Part shown: piece after piece, positions 23,420 to 31,241 of the stretch
Numbering within the stretch: the first letter of the stretch is position 1
Layout of the letters: each line of letters starts with the position of its first letter
Source: Podospora anserina
Taxonomy: Eukaryota
Assembly (NCBI GenBank): GCA_017654855.1
Contig: CM030335.1
Span: forward strand, 1,674,001-1,738,000
Direction of reading: 5' to 3'
DNA: 64,000 nt
Notes under the pieces: model-generated
Told to the model about the DNA's origin: nothing
Databases searched by the model: none
Seen by the model: the letters and a program-made list of their open reading frames with translations, nothing else
Program-made: the position numbers and the translations under genes

Positions 23420-23521
23420 GCCCTTCGGGGCATTTGGTCAATTTGAAACGATACAGAGAAGATTAGCATGGCCCCTGCACTAAGGATGACACGCTACTCA
23501 AAGAGACGCTACCAATTTTTT
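23420..23521 (+). ncRNA. SNR6: U6 spliceosomal snRNA (intronless)
   Basis: 5' stem-loop GCCC-TTCG-GGGC; ATTTGGTCAATTTGAAAC; ACAGAGA box 23453-23459; AGC triad 23465-23467; ISL GCATGGCCCCTGC..AAGGATGAC; oligo-T Pol III terminator. Confidence 0.95.
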
Positions 23522-24228: not shown

Positions 24229-26063
24229 CTAGTCATCCTCCAGATCACCTTCAGCTCCCCTCCCCCTCCCACCAGCCTTATCCTTCCTAATATCAACCCA
24301 CCCCATCCCCAAAGCCGTAAAAACCGCCACCCCTCCCGCCGCAGTAGCCATGTAAAACACCTTACCTATACTCCTCGACCAAGCCTCCAACACAACATCC
24401 AAATCCCCCTCTTTGACCACCTCCCTAAATCTCGTCGCGCCCGCTTGGAGGATCTCCCTGCTGTACGGAACTGCTTGGGATAGTTCATTTTGAAGGGTTT
24501 CCCCAAATATGGTGTTAGCTCCAGCAAGGAGGATGGAGATACCGAGGTTTTGGACAAAGACCAGGATGCACGTCCCCATTGCTATGTCCTGCGGCGGGAG
24601 GATGGCTTGGATTGCTAGGAGGGGCATCTGCATTCCCGCGCCGCGGCCGATGCCGCCGAGGATTTGGTAGAGGATGTACTGCACTGGAGGCGTGGTGGGG
24701 GAGAAGGTTGAGCAGAGACCGTTGGAGACGGCGCCGACGGAGGCGGAGAAGATGGTGTAGGGGATTACATAGCCCGTTTTTTGAACTGGTGAGGGGAGGG
24801 CGACGGTTAGCTTTGGGGAGTGGGGAGAAAGGGGAGGGAAGGGACTTACCAAGCGGACCGACGATGACGGCTAGGATGAGCTGGCTGACGATGCTGGCCA
24901 TGACGTACACGCCTGACATGATGGGGGTTGCGCCGTGGACGGCTTGGAAGTATATTGGCAAAAAGAAACTCGCGACGTAGACGATGAAGAGGAGGAAGCA
25001 GTTTGTGATGGCGCTGGTCCAGACTTGTCGTTGGGTAACGAGGGAGAGTGGGACGAGGGCTACGTCGCCGAGGTACCAGTCCCAGATGAGGAAGACTATC
25101 GTCGTTGCGCCAGCTCCGGAGAAGAGGCCAATGATGATGGGGGAGTTCCATGGGTATTTGTCACCGCCCCATGACAGCGCTAGCATCAGCTGGACAGCTG
25201 CGGGTGCTAGCAGTGCGAATCCGAGGAGGTCGAGCTCGATGTAGATGCGACGAAGGACGTCCATAGCGCGCCGTTTCTGGAAGGCGTCTGGGATGTGGAC
25301 AAAGGAGAGCGCAACGATGACGAGAGCGCCGATTGGGAGGTTGATATAGAAGCACCAGCGCCAGGAAACGTAAGAGGTAAAGGCTCCACCGACGAGGGGA
25401 CCAGCAATGATGCCAAGCTGCGAGAAGCCCATCATGATTCCGGTGTATGTTGGCCGCCGACTCATGGGTACTGATGTTCCGAGGATGGTGAGAGCTCCGT
25501 TGATGAGGCCCGCCCCCCCGATCCCGGCGATAGCGCGACCAGTGATGAGCATCCAGGAGGCGACTGAGGCGCCGCAGATGGCAGAACCAATCTCGAAGAT
25601 CGCGAAGAAGGTGATGAAGGTCCATTGGGTGCTGAACTTCTGGTAAATCTTGCCTGTGAGGGGTTGAAGGGCGGCGCTGGCGAGTTGGTAGATGGCGGCA
25701 TACCATCCGACGTCTTCAAGGGATTTGAACTCATCCGTAATGCGAGGTATCTGTTTCCGACAGATTAGCGACCTGTATCTTGGAGAAAAGGGGCGCTTTG
25801 ATAGCGGTACTCACTGCAGTGGCGAGGATGGAGGTATCAAGCATCATCAGAAAGACAACTACTGTGACAGAGGCCAGCAAGGCGGCCAGCTTGAATCCTT
25901 CGACATATTCGGGCTCGGTAGTCTTGGGCACGGTGAACTCATTCGAGGGACTTGGCTGACTTGAGGGGCCATCGCTTCTTGTCGCAGCTCTTGAAGGCCC
26001 GGGGAATCTATCGAGTTCTGGATCTGAAGGCAGACGGCGATGGGAAAGCGACCTTCTCTCCAT
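24229..26063 (-). CDS. MFS drug/toxin efflux transporter, DHA2/14-TMS family (2 introns)
   Basis: Motifs LDTSILATA/IPRIT.EF, GRAIAGIGGAG, GPLVGGAFT.YVSWRWCFYINLPIG, LPIYFQAV.G. Many hydrophobic helices. Confidence 0.92.
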
Positions 26064-27182
26064 CGCAATGGCGGCGATTCACACGAGCAGGAGTAGTAGG
26101 ATGATGATGATGCTGTTGTTGTCAGTCGTCTTTACATGGAGGCTTACCAAGTTCGGGCAAAAATAAATTTGTCGTATTTGAAGCCAAGTCAAAAAAGTGC
26201 ATCGAGAAAGTCGACTAGGTCGAAAGGGCAGTTGTTGTACTGAGGACTGTTAAGTAACAACTCAACCAGTCGCGTCTACAGAGACATAGATCCATATCAC
26301 TCGCCGACGGAGGTGCCATTGCAACTACTGTAGGGTGGTAGGTCACCTGGGCTGGAGCAGGGCGGAATCGCCGTCATTTTCGGCCTTCAGTGTAAGGGCT
26401 GCAGCGCCAGTTGCTCCTTCCACTTTTGCTTAACGCGTGGGCCATGAGCTTCAACACGAAACTTCATCGCATGTAGCAACGTGCGTAGTGGCCGATCATT
26501 CAGCCCTACAACACCGCATGGAGTGCTTGTACGCATCCATGGATGACGCCTTTCCTTAGCAAGTAAGCGTGAGGGTCATCGCAACGACAAGCCAACCACG
26601 GAGAATCCACAGCACATTGGGTCTCTTTCGCTGATTCAAACCACACAGGAGCAACAGGACATACGGCGGCCGAATTTATCGCATCACATCAAGTATCTCA
26701 TCCTACAACAACCTGGCAGCAATTCGGCCGGAACCAAGAGTGTCGTCAAAAGTGGAGATCAACAACACAAACCCTAACCCTGCCAATACCACTCCGTTCC
26801 GGGCGATCCGGAATGGAAGCTTCGGCTCCACAGGCATGTGGAGCGGAGTTCGGACAAATCGAGATTTCCCGACTTCCGAGCTCACCGGGCAAGTTTGCAT
26901 CGAGATCCCATTCATTCAACATGGCCACGAATCCTCCTCCAATGCGCTCCGATACCACCCATTCCGGCTGCTGAATCCATTGTCACTCTTTTACTCTCCT
27001 TCTCTCAACGTTGCTAGTTTTCCTCGTTCAGATTGGCGCTCTCTCTCAACCGTGTGGGATATCGGAAACCGGTATTCCGGCCGAAACCGTGCCCGTCTCC
27101 TTTCGGTTTGCGTGCCCCTTTTTGAGCAGCCAACGTCTTGAACGTTCAACCCTAACCCTTCCGAGAGTGTTCCTCCAACATC

Positions 27183-29673
27183 ATGGAGACAGCATCGTCC
27201 TCCTCAACGACGACAACTAACGGCTCGGTCAATGGGATGCCGGCCCCGTACGGCAGGGCTTGCACAAACTGTGCGAGGGCGAAGTGCAGGTGTATCTACC
27301 GGACCGGCGGTGCCGACTGTGAGAGGTAGGCCAACACCGTTTTCACTCTAATAATGGCCGAGAGGACTTTCGGCCGAGTTGTGATGGCTCAACTGCCTCC
27401 TACTGTTTATTCAACGTCTTCTGTTTGTACTCTTTCAATCCTATAAGCATACGACCGTTGGACAGACAGGAACGGGATTGGTCACCTGCTCAAAACAGCC
27501 TGAAACCGCCGTGCCGGGACGGGTCAAGTCCCCACCTAGGTGTGCATGATGGTATGCGGTTGCCCGCATTTCCCCACGGCGCCTATCCCGTCCCAGGTTG
27601 GCGGCTCCGTGTCCCGGAGCACCGGGTCCGGGTTACAGGTCCGGACGAGGCTCAACTCCGCCGTTGGCTTCGGTGATCGTCGTTCCACTTGCAGTTCCCC
27701 ATGGGGTCCCCTCTATTTCGTTGACACATTGCTCCATCCATTGCTTGGACGCTGACATGGAACCAGATGTCATCGGTTACGGAAAGAGTGCATCCCATCG
27801 GTCTCGGTCAGGAAGAGAAATGGCAAGCGTACCCATGTCTCCCGTGCCGCCCAGCTTGAGGCTAAGCTAGAGGACCTTGTATCTCTTCTCCGTCATCAGG
27901 CCGGACCGGGTGGCACGGCTCCTTCTCCGGGTGAGCCGTCTGTTGCTTCTAGCACACCGGCACCAAGTGCTCGTTCGGCGGCCAGTGTTGCGGGTGATCA
28001 TTCATCACATCCGGTGCCAGTTGCTGTTTTGCCTCCCCAGCTACCAGATTGTCATCCGGCTCATGGAAAAGGCCGTCCAACGCCTGTCACTCGCGGTACT
28101 CTCCTTGGCAGCGTATTTGAGCCTCAGGATGTGGGACCGCGCTCACCAACCCCCCCGCCGGTCGAGCCGCCAGCCATCCCGTATTGCACCTATCAGCCAA
28201 GTCCATTCGAGGCTGCTGATGGACTGGTGACGTTCAGAAAGTATATGTTGATCTTCCTCCCATTTGTATACCTGCCATCCAACATGACGGAGGAACGGCT
28301 TCGAAAAACATATCCCTTTTTGTGGTTCAGCATCATGACTGTCACCTCCAAGAACGTGGATCGACGTCTTGTGATGAGCGAGTCAATCAAGAAGTTCATT
28401 GCCCAGAAGATGGTCATGGAACATGAGAAGAGCTTAGACCTTCTTTTTGGCCTCTTGGTCATCATGGGCTGGTGAGATTGTTGTCTGTCTGACCTGACTG
28501 GGCAAGGTGCTGACCCAGATGCAGGACTCATTATCACATAAAGCGGGAAAAACCCATCCTTTCACTTCTGGCATCGCTCGCAAAATCATTAGTATTTGAT
28601 CTTGGCTTGAACAAAGTTCCTAGTGAGCCGTACATTTCAGCGTGTTTGAAGACAGCCTTCCACCCTCCACCAAGAGAAAAGACGATGGAGGAACGACGAG
28701 CCGTGCTGGCGTGTTTCCTGCTCACATCTCAGATATCTCATTCCCTAAAGAGGCTGGACGCCCTAACCTGGACGTCTCACATGGAAGAAAGCTTACAGTT
28801 CCTTACCCAGCGGCACGAGTGGGAAGGGGACGATCTTTTGGTTGCTCAGGTCAAGATTCAACTCATCGTCGAGCAGCTCAACAGGGCCACATCACAGTCA
28901 AGAGACAATGCGCCACCTTCGTACTATCTTTCGGCCCTCCACACTCAGCTTACCAACATCAAGACCCAGCTCCCCAGTCATTTGCAACAAAACGGTACAG
29001 TCTACCCCCCTCGTCTCTCTCTTCATTTAGGACTGCAAATGCTAATAATACCATGGCAGACACAATCCTCAGCCACATCTCCTACACCGAGCTCGCCATC
29101 CACGAAGCCGCCGTTGCCAAGCCCCGTATCTCCCCAACCACCACCGTCCCCGACCTCCAGCGCTACGCCGCCATGGAGGCCTGCCTCAACGCCATCAAAG
29201 ACTGGTTCGACCGCCACTTCTCCATCCCGTCATACGTCTACATCGGCATGACGTTCAGCTACTGGTGCCACATGGCCCACTGCCTCCTCTCCCTCTACCG
29301 GCTCTCCGTCCTCGACGACCCCGCCTGGGACCGCCGCGCCGTCCGCAACAAGCTCGATCTGCTACGGATCTGCGACCAGCTCAAGCTAGGCTTTGAGGAG
29401 CTCTCCGCCAAAAGAAGGCTAGACTCGGGCCCGACGATCGAGGAGGATGGGTTCACCAAGTTTAACATGATGCTGCGGACAATGAAGAGCGGGTGGGTGG
29501 CGGAGCTGGCGGCGATTGACGGGGTGGATCTGAACGGCGGGGGGCATCATTCGAGCTCGGTGGAACAGTACCTGGATGCGGGGAACGCGAATGAGCTGAA
29601 CTTGCCGTTGTTTCATGCCGAGGATCCGGAGGCGTGGATGGCGGGGTTGTTCGATATGAATTGGGATCCTTGA
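27183..29673 (+). CDS. Zn(II)2Cys6 transcription factor; first intron 27326-27766 splits the zinc cluster, further introns ~28473-28523 and ~28995-29058
   Basis: Spliced CTNCARAKCRCIYRTGGADCER|CHRLRKEC matches C-x2-C-x6-C-x8-C-x2-C-x6-C. Middle region FLPFV...YPFLW..KSLDLL.GLL..EERRAVLACF is typical of fungal C6 regulators. Confidence 0.9.
27469..27686 (+). ncRNA. Candidate structured intronic RNA element (unknown class)
   Basis: About ten mutually nested helices read directly from the sequence (see findings). GC-rich island inside a 441-nt intron. Confidence 0.5.
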
Positions 29674-29775
29674 GCTTGTTCGGCAGCATCGCATTGACAT
29701 CACCGGACAACTGATCACGGCAACTTGAACGAGGACAACTTTTATTTACGCGACTGTTCTGTTGTTACAAAGGTT

Positions 29776-31241
29776 CTATACAGGGTTTCTCCTTAGGGGA
29801 GAGAGAGGGGGTGAGGTCAGAGCCACGGCTGTGGGCATTGCTGGTACTGGTGGTGGTGGTGCTGCCCATTCTTGCCTTGCTTCCCCTTCATACTGCGGCT
29901 GTGAGGCGCTGAAACTCATCGCTCTCGACTTGATGCCCCCGGGTATCATGAAGTTGGGTAGATTCGGGCTCGCAACATTTTCTGGGCCCTGTGGTGGTCG
30001 GGATGGCTGTGATGGGTGCGGCGGATAATACGGTGATGCCTGTGAGGCCATACCGAGCGACTGCCGGTGGGGCGTCAGGGGCGACACCGGGAGGATCGGG
30101 TGCCCTGGGGAAGGATAAGCTGTGAAGGCGCTTACTGGGCGGTAGGGCACGCCGTGTGCGCCGAGGTCACCGCCTTGAGAGGAGGGGATGTACTGCTGCT
30201 GCTGCTGTTGGTAGTATCCCTGATTCGGGGCATAAGCAAACTGCTGCTGGGGTTGGCCGGGTGAAGTCTGGGCAAAGGCAATGTGCTGCTGCTGCTGCTG
30301 CTGCTGCTCTTGACCCGGCGATCCTACCATCGCAAACTTCTGTTGTTCTTGTGTTGGTAGGGGGGGTAGGTAAGCCCCATACTGCTGCTGCCCTTCCCGT
30401 TGGTACCCCCAATACTGCCCCTGCCCCTGCCCCCCCGGACTCCCACCCACCGCTACACCAACCTGCGACGGAGAGAAACTCGACTGCCTCCTCGCGCCCG
30501 CGGCAGCGAATGCGTACTCGTCTTTGTGAAAGAAGGGGTCATCGTTTGTGGCAGAACCGTTCCTACTGCTGAGATCACCTGGAAGGGTCGGTTCAGGGTA
30601 TTGCTGCGGCTTGGTATTGTCAACCATGTTCATCGTGTCAGGGTAATCAGCCGTGACGACTGCACCGCGGATCCCGCCTTTTTTCTTGCGCCAGAGGAGG
30701 AAGATGATGAGGGCGATGAGAGCGACGGCTGCGACTGCCCCGGCTGCTATCCCGGCTGCTGTGCCGGGGGATAGACCGCTTCCCTCTTCTGAAGGGGGAA
30801 GGGGTGATTCGGTTGCGGAGGGGGAGGCGCTGGCGGCGGGGGAGGTGGTTTCTGTTGCGCTGAGTGTTGTTGAGGTTTCTACCGCGCTGGTGGTTGTTTG
30901 AGTGTCATCGGTTTTTGTCGTATCGTCATCTTCGGTTGTGGAGGAAGGGGATGGGGTTCGGGAGGACAGGCGGGTGGTGATGGTGGTGCGGGCTGTTATT
31001 ATTGTCGTTCTTCGCGGGGGTTCTGGTTCTTGGTCTTGTCGGGGAGACAGGTGGTGGATGGGTTCGTGGGGGAGGTTGCTTGGTGGGATAGCGGGCTGGG
31101 GTTGTTAGTTGATGAATGCCATGAGCGTCGGATCACACGAAGACTTACATCCACCGCCCTCCCCCTCACCACCGTCGCTACTACATCAACTCGTGCTATC
31201 ACGCCCACAGTAACTGAGAGTAGCAATCGACCGGTCTTCAT
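29776..31241 (-). CDS. Type I membrane protein with Ser/Thr-rich ectodomain and Gln/Pro-rich cytoplasmic tail (cell-wall-sensor-like architecture); intron ~31096-31148
   Basis: Hydrophobic N-terminus, TTTSAVETSTTLSATETTS region, TM AGIAAGAVAAVALIALIIFLLW followed by RKKK, polyQ tail. Confidence 0.75.

Follow-up and report, generated by a model that had tools for sequence, protein, structure and literature searches.

Among the described systems closest to the locus studied here are the fungal TPP riboswitch introns (RF00059), e.g., those in thiamine-biosynthesis genes of Neurospora. Others are the autoregulatory introns of ribosomal-protein genes, in which splicing is blocked by the encoded protein once it has bound a stem-loop of the pre-mRNA, and the zipper stems of long yeast introns, which are helices that draw the branch point close to the 5′ splice site. 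Introns of fungi are, to our knowledge, short and hardly ever conserved at the sequence level. The available text of Gao et al. 2021 (PMC8216456) describes mRNA-associated fungal intronic structures in the RPS13, lysyl-tRNA synthetase, and metacaspase 1B introns, mentions autoregulatory ribosomal-protein intron elements, and reports intronic snoRNAs in Pezizomycotina. No Zn2Cys6 regulator intron is among the 17 structures listed there, and the term zinc or zn2 is absent from the available text of Li and Breaker 2017 (PMC5640933); the supplements of both papers could list weaker candidates. Literature searches with four 11- to 12-nt pieces of the block described below gave, among the matches listed, animals, viruses, a parasite, and a bacterium and no fungal introns; Zn2Cys6 was absent among the matches listed for intron retention and autoregulation. 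The conserved intronic cis-element of a Zn2Cys6 regulator gene that the present study reveals is, in our reading, new.

The element lies in a 64-kb stretch of Podospora anserina DNA, the whole of which is called the window here (Table 1). The spliced reading of the host gene gives a zinc cluster of the form C-X2-C-X6-C-X8-C-X2-C-X6-C, which is that of a Zn2Cys6 protein. An annotated 643-aa orthologue (P0002) shares its N-terminus and exon 1/2 junction, with 99% identity over exon 2. A protein search returned 29 matches at E ≤ 1e-10, with identity down to 33%, spanning Podosporaceae, Chaetomiaceae, Lasiosphaeriaceae, and beyond; 28 of them carry the precomputed family PF27751, and some sources name the orthologues WAR1. 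The four exon translations, searched separately, had no match in Pfam. The product of the neighbouring divergent gene is, as read from its sequence, an MFS transporter. A transporter gene was found upstream on the opposite strand in 5/5 loci with enough upstream DNA (tblastn), and the pair is syntenic in related loci. Thus, the placement of the regulator divergent to a transporter gene, an efflux pump in the words of an earlier note, is borne out, and the regulator gene is Sordariales-wide and head-to-head with an MFS transporter gene.

Table 1. Positions of the gene parts and conserved elements in the window
Feature	Position	Strand	Remarks
MFS-type transporter gene, divergent	24229..26078	-	ORFs
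Exon 1, Zn2Cys6 regulator gene	27183..27325	+	Start codon to Cys4 and 2 bases of an Arg codon
Intron 1	27326..27766	+	441 nt, GT..AG; joints 27325 to 27767 in contigs of 4/4 runs
Nested-helix core of the earlier note	27469..27686	+	64% GC; helices found here, lineage-specific
Conserved non-coding element (CNE)	27566..27669	+	Alignments A1, A2; covariance model R1
Core block / candidate hairpin H1	27575..27611	+	24/37 positions invariant in 7 sequences
CNE 3′ part	27638..27662	+	Invariant CCGG block, then conserved pyrimidine-rich 27653-27662 (A2)
Exon 2 (Cys5, Cys6, linker)	27767..28471	+	Contig joints, ORFs, protein P0002
Intron 2	28472-28524	+	53 nt; contig joints
Intron 3	28995-29059	+	65 nt; contig joints
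Exons 3-4	stop codon ends at 29673	+	Joints, ORFs, P0002

Intron 1 splits the zinc cluster between Cys4 and Cys5, in phase 2 within an Arg codon, and its unusual length, already pointed out in the earlier note, holds against the gene's other two introns. It begins with GTAGGC, has a branch-site CTGAC at 27752-27756, and ends with CAG at 27764-27766. The splicing data are assembled contigs from four transcriptome-like runs, whose RNA nature is a guess; all three GT..AG joints of the gene are present in them. Exactly 441 nt are skipped by contigs in 4/4 runs. Intron 1 is therefore an ordinary U2-type spliceosomal intron with GT..AG ends, a branch site, and removal from RNA. The joint was the same in every run, and no alternative splice site was seen in the contigs, rare variants being dropped in assembly. 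Contigs that retain intron 1 and cross the exon 1-intron border were found in 3/4 runs, while no contig of any of the four runs retained intron 2 or 3. Depths were 6.8, 6.5, and 10.6 for the intron-1-retaining contigs and 30.9, 50.6, and 141.2 for the splice-joint contigs, depth being a poor measure of level. The retention may simply mean that a long intron is spliced slowly. If intron 1 is retained, a TAG at 27327-27329 falls in frame directly after Cys4; therefore, no functional regulator would come from the retained fraction. The retaining contigs of two runs (X17 and X18) end at 27727 and 27724, and nothing is drawn from these ends; likewise, the positions 26899-26968 at which contigs start do not mark where transcripts begin.

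The orthologous loci are metagenome contigs whose flanking genes match those of the window, and the comparison comprises seven sequences from about four lineages, which are not independent of one another. A long intron of 279 to 375 nt occupies the same codon position in all six loci that hold exon 1. Splice signals apart, no part of this intron but the CNE can be aligned in every related locus; alignment A1 has 44 invariant columns, 37 of which fall within 27575-27658, and covariance model R1 finds one match per locus, at 78 to 107 bits. At the core block, 21 to 23 of 27 positions match the window and 22 to 27 of 27 match among the other loci. At four-fold third positions of the adjacent zinc-cluster codons, only 10 to 16 of 28 to 32 match the window (0.32-0.53). 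In 30-nt bins, identity is 0.57-0.70 in the CNE and 0.73-0.87 in the zinc-cluster codons; the remaining bins that lie wholly in the intron have 0.00-0.43. Conservation of the CNE is thus on a par with that of the zinc-cluster codons, with the four-fold sites near saturation. The block occurs once in each of the seven loci holding that part of the intron. We conclude that a block of about 100 nt is under purifying selection across related fungi, single-copy per locus and non-coding. The earlier note had named want of conservation in orthologues, and many genomic copies as of a MITE or introner-like element, as arguments against its proposal; the first fails on the 7/7 loci, and for the second, no further copy was seen in the 64-kb window or in the whole 96 kb searched (the window plus 32 kb of related loci).

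A coding micro-exon or small ORF was considered and rejected, as six-frame searches gave only short hits over the block, the best frame has a stop in one locus (L002), and the variable positions lack a three-base rhythm. Exact-pattern scans with the core block gave, as expected, no match in prokaryote genomes or viral contigs. Four 7-mers are common to the block and the divergent promoter, but this sharing is confined to the closest three or four loci. In its 5′ part, the window intron holds some 110 nt of additional sequence that has no counterpart in the orthologues; the intron therefore gains and loses sequence freely.

The elaborate fold that had been read in this intron behaves differently from the block. 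All ten helices listed in the earlier note are, at the coordinates given there, fully complementary when G-U pairs are counted (base 27604 is common to two of them), and the minimum free energy (MFE) structure of 27460-27700 returns the nested helices. The whole intron has a sense z of -2.17, with 4/100 shuffles folding as well, and an antisense z of -0.86. For the GC-rich core itself (27460-27700), the sense z is -1.27, with 21/200 shuffles as good, and the antisense z is -1.10. Whole-intron values of four orthologues (-2.00, -0.29, -0.01, and +0.39) scatter around 0 and are not clearly below shuffled controls either. A sequence of 64% GC gives such helices, which is why there are many of them here. 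Across six orthologous introns, the helices pair in only 108/223 cells as against 29-40% in slid controls, helices 1 and 2 are paired in 34% and 47% of cells, and the long helices have 5′ strands that do not align across loci. The claim of a highly structured multi-helix RNA thus lacks support: the core is no more stable than its shuffles, the long-range helices are not kept, and folding energy in the window and the orthologues does not single out a structured cis-regulatory RNA. That the elaborate fold is the conserved feature is not supported. The earlier note had itself named a folding energy no better than that of shuffles, together with want of covariation, as arguments against its proposal, and both are observed. 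A long list of helices in a GC-rich sequence is not evidence for a structured RNA, and the informative signal came from orthologues rather than from folding.

A smaller structure is the candidate hairpin H1, which coincides with the core block and consists of four short stems that could hold 13 base pairs, a 3-nt bulge, and a 3-nt loop. RNAalifold picks it as a local hairpin, and it is part of the whole-intron MFE structure in four of the six complete orthologous introns, with outer-stem probabilities of 0.52-0.94 in those four. In the whole-intron ensembles of the window and one related locus (L003), the outer-stem probability is close to 0, as the block is paired there with sequence upstream of it. 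Sense z values in the seven sequences are -1.27, -2.07, -1.83, -3.07, -2.34, -0.22, and -1.78, against antisense values of -1.80, -1.47, -1.10, -1.52, -0.90, -0.65, and -0.24, i.e., sense lies below antisense in 6/7. Five pairs vary on one side, and all are kept paired via G-U; lineage-specific changes in L002, L004, and L001 each give new pairs or a shifted helix, and three pairs are broken in one or two sequences each. The substitutions seen in the loci preserve the fold better than random changes do, with fractions of 0.059, 0.286, 0.275, 0.111, and 0.272, for which a Fisher combination by hand gives p of about 0.06, which is not significant. None of the 13 pairs changed on both sides in these seven sequences, a sample of low power. 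The covariation score was reached by shuffles in 238/500 trials, and the RNAalifold covariation term is unfavourable (+0.43). The covariation that the earlier note proposed to look for in orthologues is therefore missing from H1, and the comparison does not identify a structured RNA by this route. The bulge and loop of H1 are as invariant as its stems, a pattern that agrees equally with sequence-specific recognition of RNA and of DNA.

Searches for known RNAs were in line with the earlier note in one respect, as it had found no TPP consensus in the intron. Rfam cmscan of 26900-28200 at E ≤ 10 gave four chance-level matches, none of them to TPP, and the six related loci at E ≤ 1 matched neither TPP nor a snoRNA family. 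These results confirm that a TPP element is missing from the intron and lend no support to a known structured RNA. No snoRNA family matched the intron, so it is not placed among snoRNA hosts by Rfam; no conserved C/D or H/ACA boxes were seen by eye in alignment A1, and ARAGORN found no tRNA. Matches to the mascRNA model (17.2 bits in the window, 26.6 bits in L003) were rejected, being below the gathering score of 42.5 and on opposite strands.

How the locus compares with the systems described above can now be stated. Like the TPP introns, it has a conserved RNA-capable element in a spliceosomal intron, with a premature stop where productive splicing fails; unlike them, it has no model match at E ≤ 10, a single joint in 4/4 runs, and no covariation, and its host is a regulator and not a biosynthetic gene. 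What it shares with the ribosomal-protein introns is a short conserved stem-loop (predicted here) that has an invariant bulge and loop and lies in an intron of the very gene concerned; in addition, the unspliced fraction cannot yield the protein. In contrast, the host here is a DNA-binding zinc-cluster factor, and we know of no RNA binding by this class. The window-specific helices at 27469-27686 would, like zipper stems, shorten the effective distance between the splice signals, but zipper stems need pairing only, whereas here a sequence block is kept and the pairing is not. As in introner-like elements or MITEs, the insert is GC-rich, hairpin-rich, and intronic, with weak terminal inverted repeats (27469-27486/27672-27686); unlike those, it is single-copy in the 96 kb searched, and the intron position is orthologous in six loci. 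With the structures of PMC8216456, as far as its available text describes them, it shares a single copy (per genome there, per locus here), the same gene, an intronic place, and an unknown or presumed cis-regulatory role. Those structures were accepted for significant covariation, in contrast to none in our seven sequences.

Considering all this, the block probably helps control the host gene. Our main reading, to which we give a probability of roughly 0.4, is that it acts on the pre-mRNA and tunes splicing of intron 1. In yeast, upstream activating sites have poor activity when they lie downstream, which we count for action at the RNA level. A DNA-level element is a possible but somewhat doubtful alternative; here the intron would hold a platform bound by one or more transcription factors, perhaps by the regulator itself, or a promoter for an internal or antisense transcript. 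What is conserved in the block is primary sequence: 24/37 core positions are invariant, unpaired and paired positions are equally constant, and covariation is absent. Zinc-cluster proteins usually bind CGG/CCG half-sites, and the CNE 3′ part has an invariant CCGG; TCCGG/CCGGA occurs 9.1 times per kb in the intron, 5.4 in the shared promoter, and 2.1 in the whole window. Autoregulation is also common among zinc-cluster regulators, and the host gene is a regulator, which counts for a DNA site. However, the most conserved 27 nt have no CGG/CCG triplet kept in all loci, and no 8-mer or 9-mer of the block recurs in the divergent promoter in at least 3/6 loci. Furthermore, a DNA site would have no need of the greater sense-strand stability of H1 in 6/7 sequences or of the G-U-compatible one-sided changes, and the block lies in the transcribed region, some 390 nt past the start codon.

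The other readings are of much lower probability. An intron-hosted small RNA gene, snoRNA-like or tRNA-like, with the block as its guide or protein-binding core, is improbable, although guide sequences typically show long invariant stretches, which can be counted in its favour. The intronic snoRNAs of Pezizomycotina (PMC8216456, available text) and the weak mascRNA matches also speak for it. Against it stand the lack of a snoRNA or other family match (26900-28200 at E ≤ 10, loci at E ≤ 1), the weak scores and opposite strands of the mascRNA matches, and the absence of a tRNA and of conserved boxes in A1; the intron contigs cross the exon 1-intron border and are therefore pre-mRNA rather than a free small RNA. 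Still less probable is an intron without function, i.e., an ordinary long intron or a mobile relic (introner-like or MITE) in which the block is kept by chance or in a mutational cold spot. Core folding no better than shuffles and the additional 5′ sequence of the window intron would suit it, but the match of 21-23/27 positions beside four-fold sites at 0.32-0.53, the same intron in 7/7 loci, and the absence of a second copy from the 64-kb window or the 32 kb of related loci do not. An intron position common to 6/6 exon-1 loci argues against recent insertion.

The riboswitch-like RNA of the earlier note, a ligand-sensing multi-helix structure at 27469-27686 gating splicing of the regulator, is hardly credible, and a ligand-sensing riboswitch in intron 1 is unlikely. 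The helices do exist in the window, and intron-retaining contigs occur; 27506-27542 sequesters the block and excludes H1, so that two conformations are possible on paper. In contrast, the core has a z of -1.27, with 21/200 shuffles as good and a similar value on the antisense strand, orthologue z values run from -2.00 through -0.29 and -0.01 to +0.39, the helices pair in only 108/223 orthologue cells as against 29-40% in slid controls, their long 5′ strands do not align across loci, no Rfam family is matched at E ≤ 10, and a single splice joint is seen in the contigs. In sum, a selected element in the intron and intron-retaining contigs in 3/4 runs are in line with that proposal, while the multi-helix fold and the lack of covariation are not.

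Returning to action on the pre-mRNA, the sense-strand block would fold into a short interrupted stem-loop or form another sequence-specific platform, and a protein would recognise it in the pre-mRNA. Such recognition could tune how efficiently the long intron 1 is removed, and, with the retained fraction lacking a functional regulator, the element would set regulator dosage. We infer only weakly that the block acts as RNA, that H1 forms, and that splicing is affected. A more elaborate version, which we regard as a long shot, is a two-state RNA switch with the block as its sensor or effector, in which H1 would compete with sequestration of the block by upstream sequence that is lineage-specific (in the window, 27506-27542). 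In that case, a protein or small molecule tied to transporter-related stress might shift the balance, and with it the fate of intron 1, removal or retention, and thereby production of the regulator. If true, the locus would be an example of a eukaryotic splicing switch that is unrelated to TPP and sits in a transcription-factor gene.

Whichever level it acts on, the intronic block is conserved like the neighbouring zinc-finger codons, and it belongs to a regulator and transporter pair kept across Sordariales. It therefore offers a target of 37 to 100 nt for testing whether retention of the intron or a DNA site within the gene sets the dosage of such a regulator.

Our analysis confirms that the intron proposed in the earlier note is real. 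Contigs were mapped on 26600-29900 from four public runs, each belonging to a different study, whose records do not say RNA; a contig joining 27325 to 27767 was present in all four, skipping 441 nt with GT..AG ends. By sequence reading, intron 1 is canonical (5′ GTAGGC, CTGAC at 27752-27756, 3′ CAG) and in phase 2, lying within an Arg codon between Cys4 and Cys5 of a C-X2-C-X6-C-X8-C-X2-C-X6-C zinc cluster. The spliced gene model agrees with an annotated 643-aa orthologue (99% identical over exon 2). Publicly named protein matches assign the window to Podospora and show the regulator family across Sordariales; some sources label this family 'WAR1'. Position 27936 is C in the window and T in all four mapped runs, probably a strain difference, which by reading of the frame would turn a Pro codon into Ser in the exon 2 linker.

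The regulator and the transporter form a head-to-head pair, and a U6 gene lies within 1 kb past the transporter's 3′ end. The motif CAACCCTAACCC is invariant in all six loci holding the region. Its distance upstream of the start codon is 24 nt in the window and roughly 30-90 nt in related loci, and it falls where transcript contigs give coverage. Three runs each contain one long contig (3.2-4.3 kb) reaching from regulator exon 2 past the 3′ end of that gene and into the convergent neighbour. Since these contigs span the junction region, the 3′ ends of the two transcription units seem to overlap or meet, a contig not being proof of a single transcript.

Features of the regulator locus and its surroundings (window coordinates)
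Feature	Position	Strand	Remarks
U6 spliceosomal RNA gene	23420-23520	+	Rfam RF00026, 95 bits (gathering score 44)
Transporter gene	24229-26078	-	MFS-type
Second, similar telomere-repeat-like copy	26768-26778		~380 nt further upstream than the first
Telomere-repeat-like motif	27148-27159		12 nt
Regulator gene	27183-29673	+	Zn2Cys6
Intron 1	27326-27766	+	441 nt
Window-specific stretch	27338-27450		~110 nt, lower GC
Hairpin in this stretch	27355-27376		9 bp
Conserved block	27566-27669
Candidate hairpin (block core)	27575-27611
Intron 2	28472-28524	+	53 nt, skipped in 4/4 runs
Intron 3	28995-29059	+	65 nt, skipped in 4/4 runs
Junction region	29700-29900
Convergent neighbour gene	29776-31104	-

Searching metagenome contigs with the exon-2 protein yielded eight loci (exon 2 protein identity 56-73%). 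The divergent transporter gene is present in 5/5 loci with enough upstream DNA, and the convergent downstream gene is likewise kept in five; these common flanking genes indicate that the loci are truly orthologous. In all six loci containing exon 1, the codon position of the intron is identical, and its lengths are 325, 325, 321, 279, 375, and 375 nt (the two of 375 nt being identical copies); in a seventh (L001), just the 3′-terminal 221 nt of the intron are present. Thus, the long intron is a conserved feature of this regulator gene. Most of the extra length in the window is explained by the window-specific stretch, which is absent from all orthologues.

Aligning seven intron sequences, the window's among them, revealed a single sharp island of conservation, with 37 of the 44 invariant columns within 27575-27658. 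Identity to the window in 30-nt bins across 27566-27655 was 0.70, 0.67, and 0.57, against 0.00-0.43 in the other wholly intronic bins and 0.73-0.87 in the zinc-cluster codons. At four-fold degenerate third positions of those codons, only 10-16 of 28-32 match the window (0.32-0.53), which puts neutral sites close to saturation; in the block core, 21-23 of 27 positions match. Read from its sequence, the block is not coding: the six frames gave short hits only, the best frame has a stop in one orthologue, and variation follows no three-base periodicity. It occurs once per locus; in 96 kb (window plus loci), its eight source copies are the only matches to a covariance model derived from it.

The earlier note had proposed a highly structured RNA inside this intron as a candidate riboswitch-like element, which our data do not support. 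All ten helices listed there are complementary at the coordinates given (base 27604 being claimed by two), and their nested arrangement is recovered in the minimum-energy fold of 27460-27700. This region has a GC content of 64% against 46-52% in the intron flanks, and its z-score was -1.27 in sense, with 21 of 200 dinucleotide shuffles folding as well, and -1.10 in antisense; the proposed structure is not more than chance. Corresponding values for the whole intron were -2.17 (4/100 shuffles as good) and -0.86. Mapped onto the alignment, the note's structure has 59.1% of its cells paired with the window's row included and 48% (108 of 223) without it, where sliding the 3′ partners by 1-3 columns gives 29-40%; the two outer helices reach 34% and 47%. 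Whole-intron z-scores of four orthologues scatter (-2.00, -0.29, -0.01, and +0.39), so high structure is not conserved and does not characterise this intron family. The note's statement that the TPP consensus is lacking holds, as no TPP riboswitch matched in Rfam at E≤10, where only chance-level matches appeared. ARAGORN found no tRNA, no second copy of the intron exists within the 64-kb window, and no Rfam family matched the block in related loci. The best match there, to a tRNA-like model (26.6 bits), was rejected as being below its threshold of 42.5 and on the strand opposite to the window's weak match.

Intron 1 has an unspliced minority form, and nothing beyond that can be said from contigs, whose depths are rough and which drop rare forms. 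Contigs keeping intron 1 and crossing the exon 1-intron border were present in three of the four runs (depths 6.8, 6.5, and 10.6, versus 30.9, 50.6, and 141.2 for joint-carrying contigs), and none in any of the four kept intron 2 or 3. Upstream intergenic bins had zero depth in two of these three runs, which argues against plain DNA carry-over. If the intron is kept, a TAG comes immediately after the codons of exon 1, so such transcripts cannot yield the regulator. In contrast to this immediate stop in the window, the whole 325-nt intron of one orthologue (L008, 2675-2999), translated by hand, is by eye stop-free in the exon 1 frame.

We tentatively favour, at roughly 40%, a cis-element at the pre-mRNA level: the block would act on the pre-mRNA and tune removal of intron 1. 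Its core could fold into an interrupted hairpin of 13 bp, in which four short stems are combined with a bulge and a loop of 3 nt each. This hairpin is chosen by RNAalifold and present in the whole-intron minimum-energy fold of 4/6 complete introns, with an outer stem probability of 0.52-0.94 in those four. It is more stable in sense than antisense in six of seven sequences, and five pairs vary on one side only, all staying paired via G-U. In three loci (L002, L004, and L001), lineage-specific changes give rise to additional pairs or shift the helix, and observed substitutions keep folding better than random ones of the same kind (fractions 0.059-0.286; hand-calculated Fisher combination, p about 0.06).

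Against an RNA hairpin, two-sided changes are seen in no pair, each of three pairs is disrupted in one or two sequences, and bulge and loop are no less invariant than the stems. Besides, shuffles reached the observed covariation score in 238/500 trials, and the prediction for the window and L003 has the block paired to upstream sequence in place of the hairpin. Therefore, a site read at the DNA level is still a serious rival, ranked next as somewhat less likely. The invariant CCGG in the block's 3′ part and the enrichment of CCGG-type motifs in the intron and shared promoter speak for a DNA site, but no CGG/CCG triplet is conserved within the 27 nt of highest conservation, and none of the element's 8-mers reappears in the promoter in at least 3 of 6 loci. 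That the intron hosts a small RNA, that the block senses a ligand as a switch, or that it has no function all trail behind both the pre-mRNA element and the DNA site.

No description of the block was found in the article text searched. Within the portions consulted of two fungal ncRNA screens, a zinc-cluster regulator intron is not listed by term search (PMC5640933) and is not among 17 structures (PMC8216456). Among the matches listed when full texts were searched for fragments of the block, only papers on animals, viruses, a parasite, and a bacterium appeared. The unsupported riboswitch-like proposal still led to a genuine feature: a single-copy block of ~100 nt, under purifying selection, in the conserved long intron of a regulator/transporter pair.
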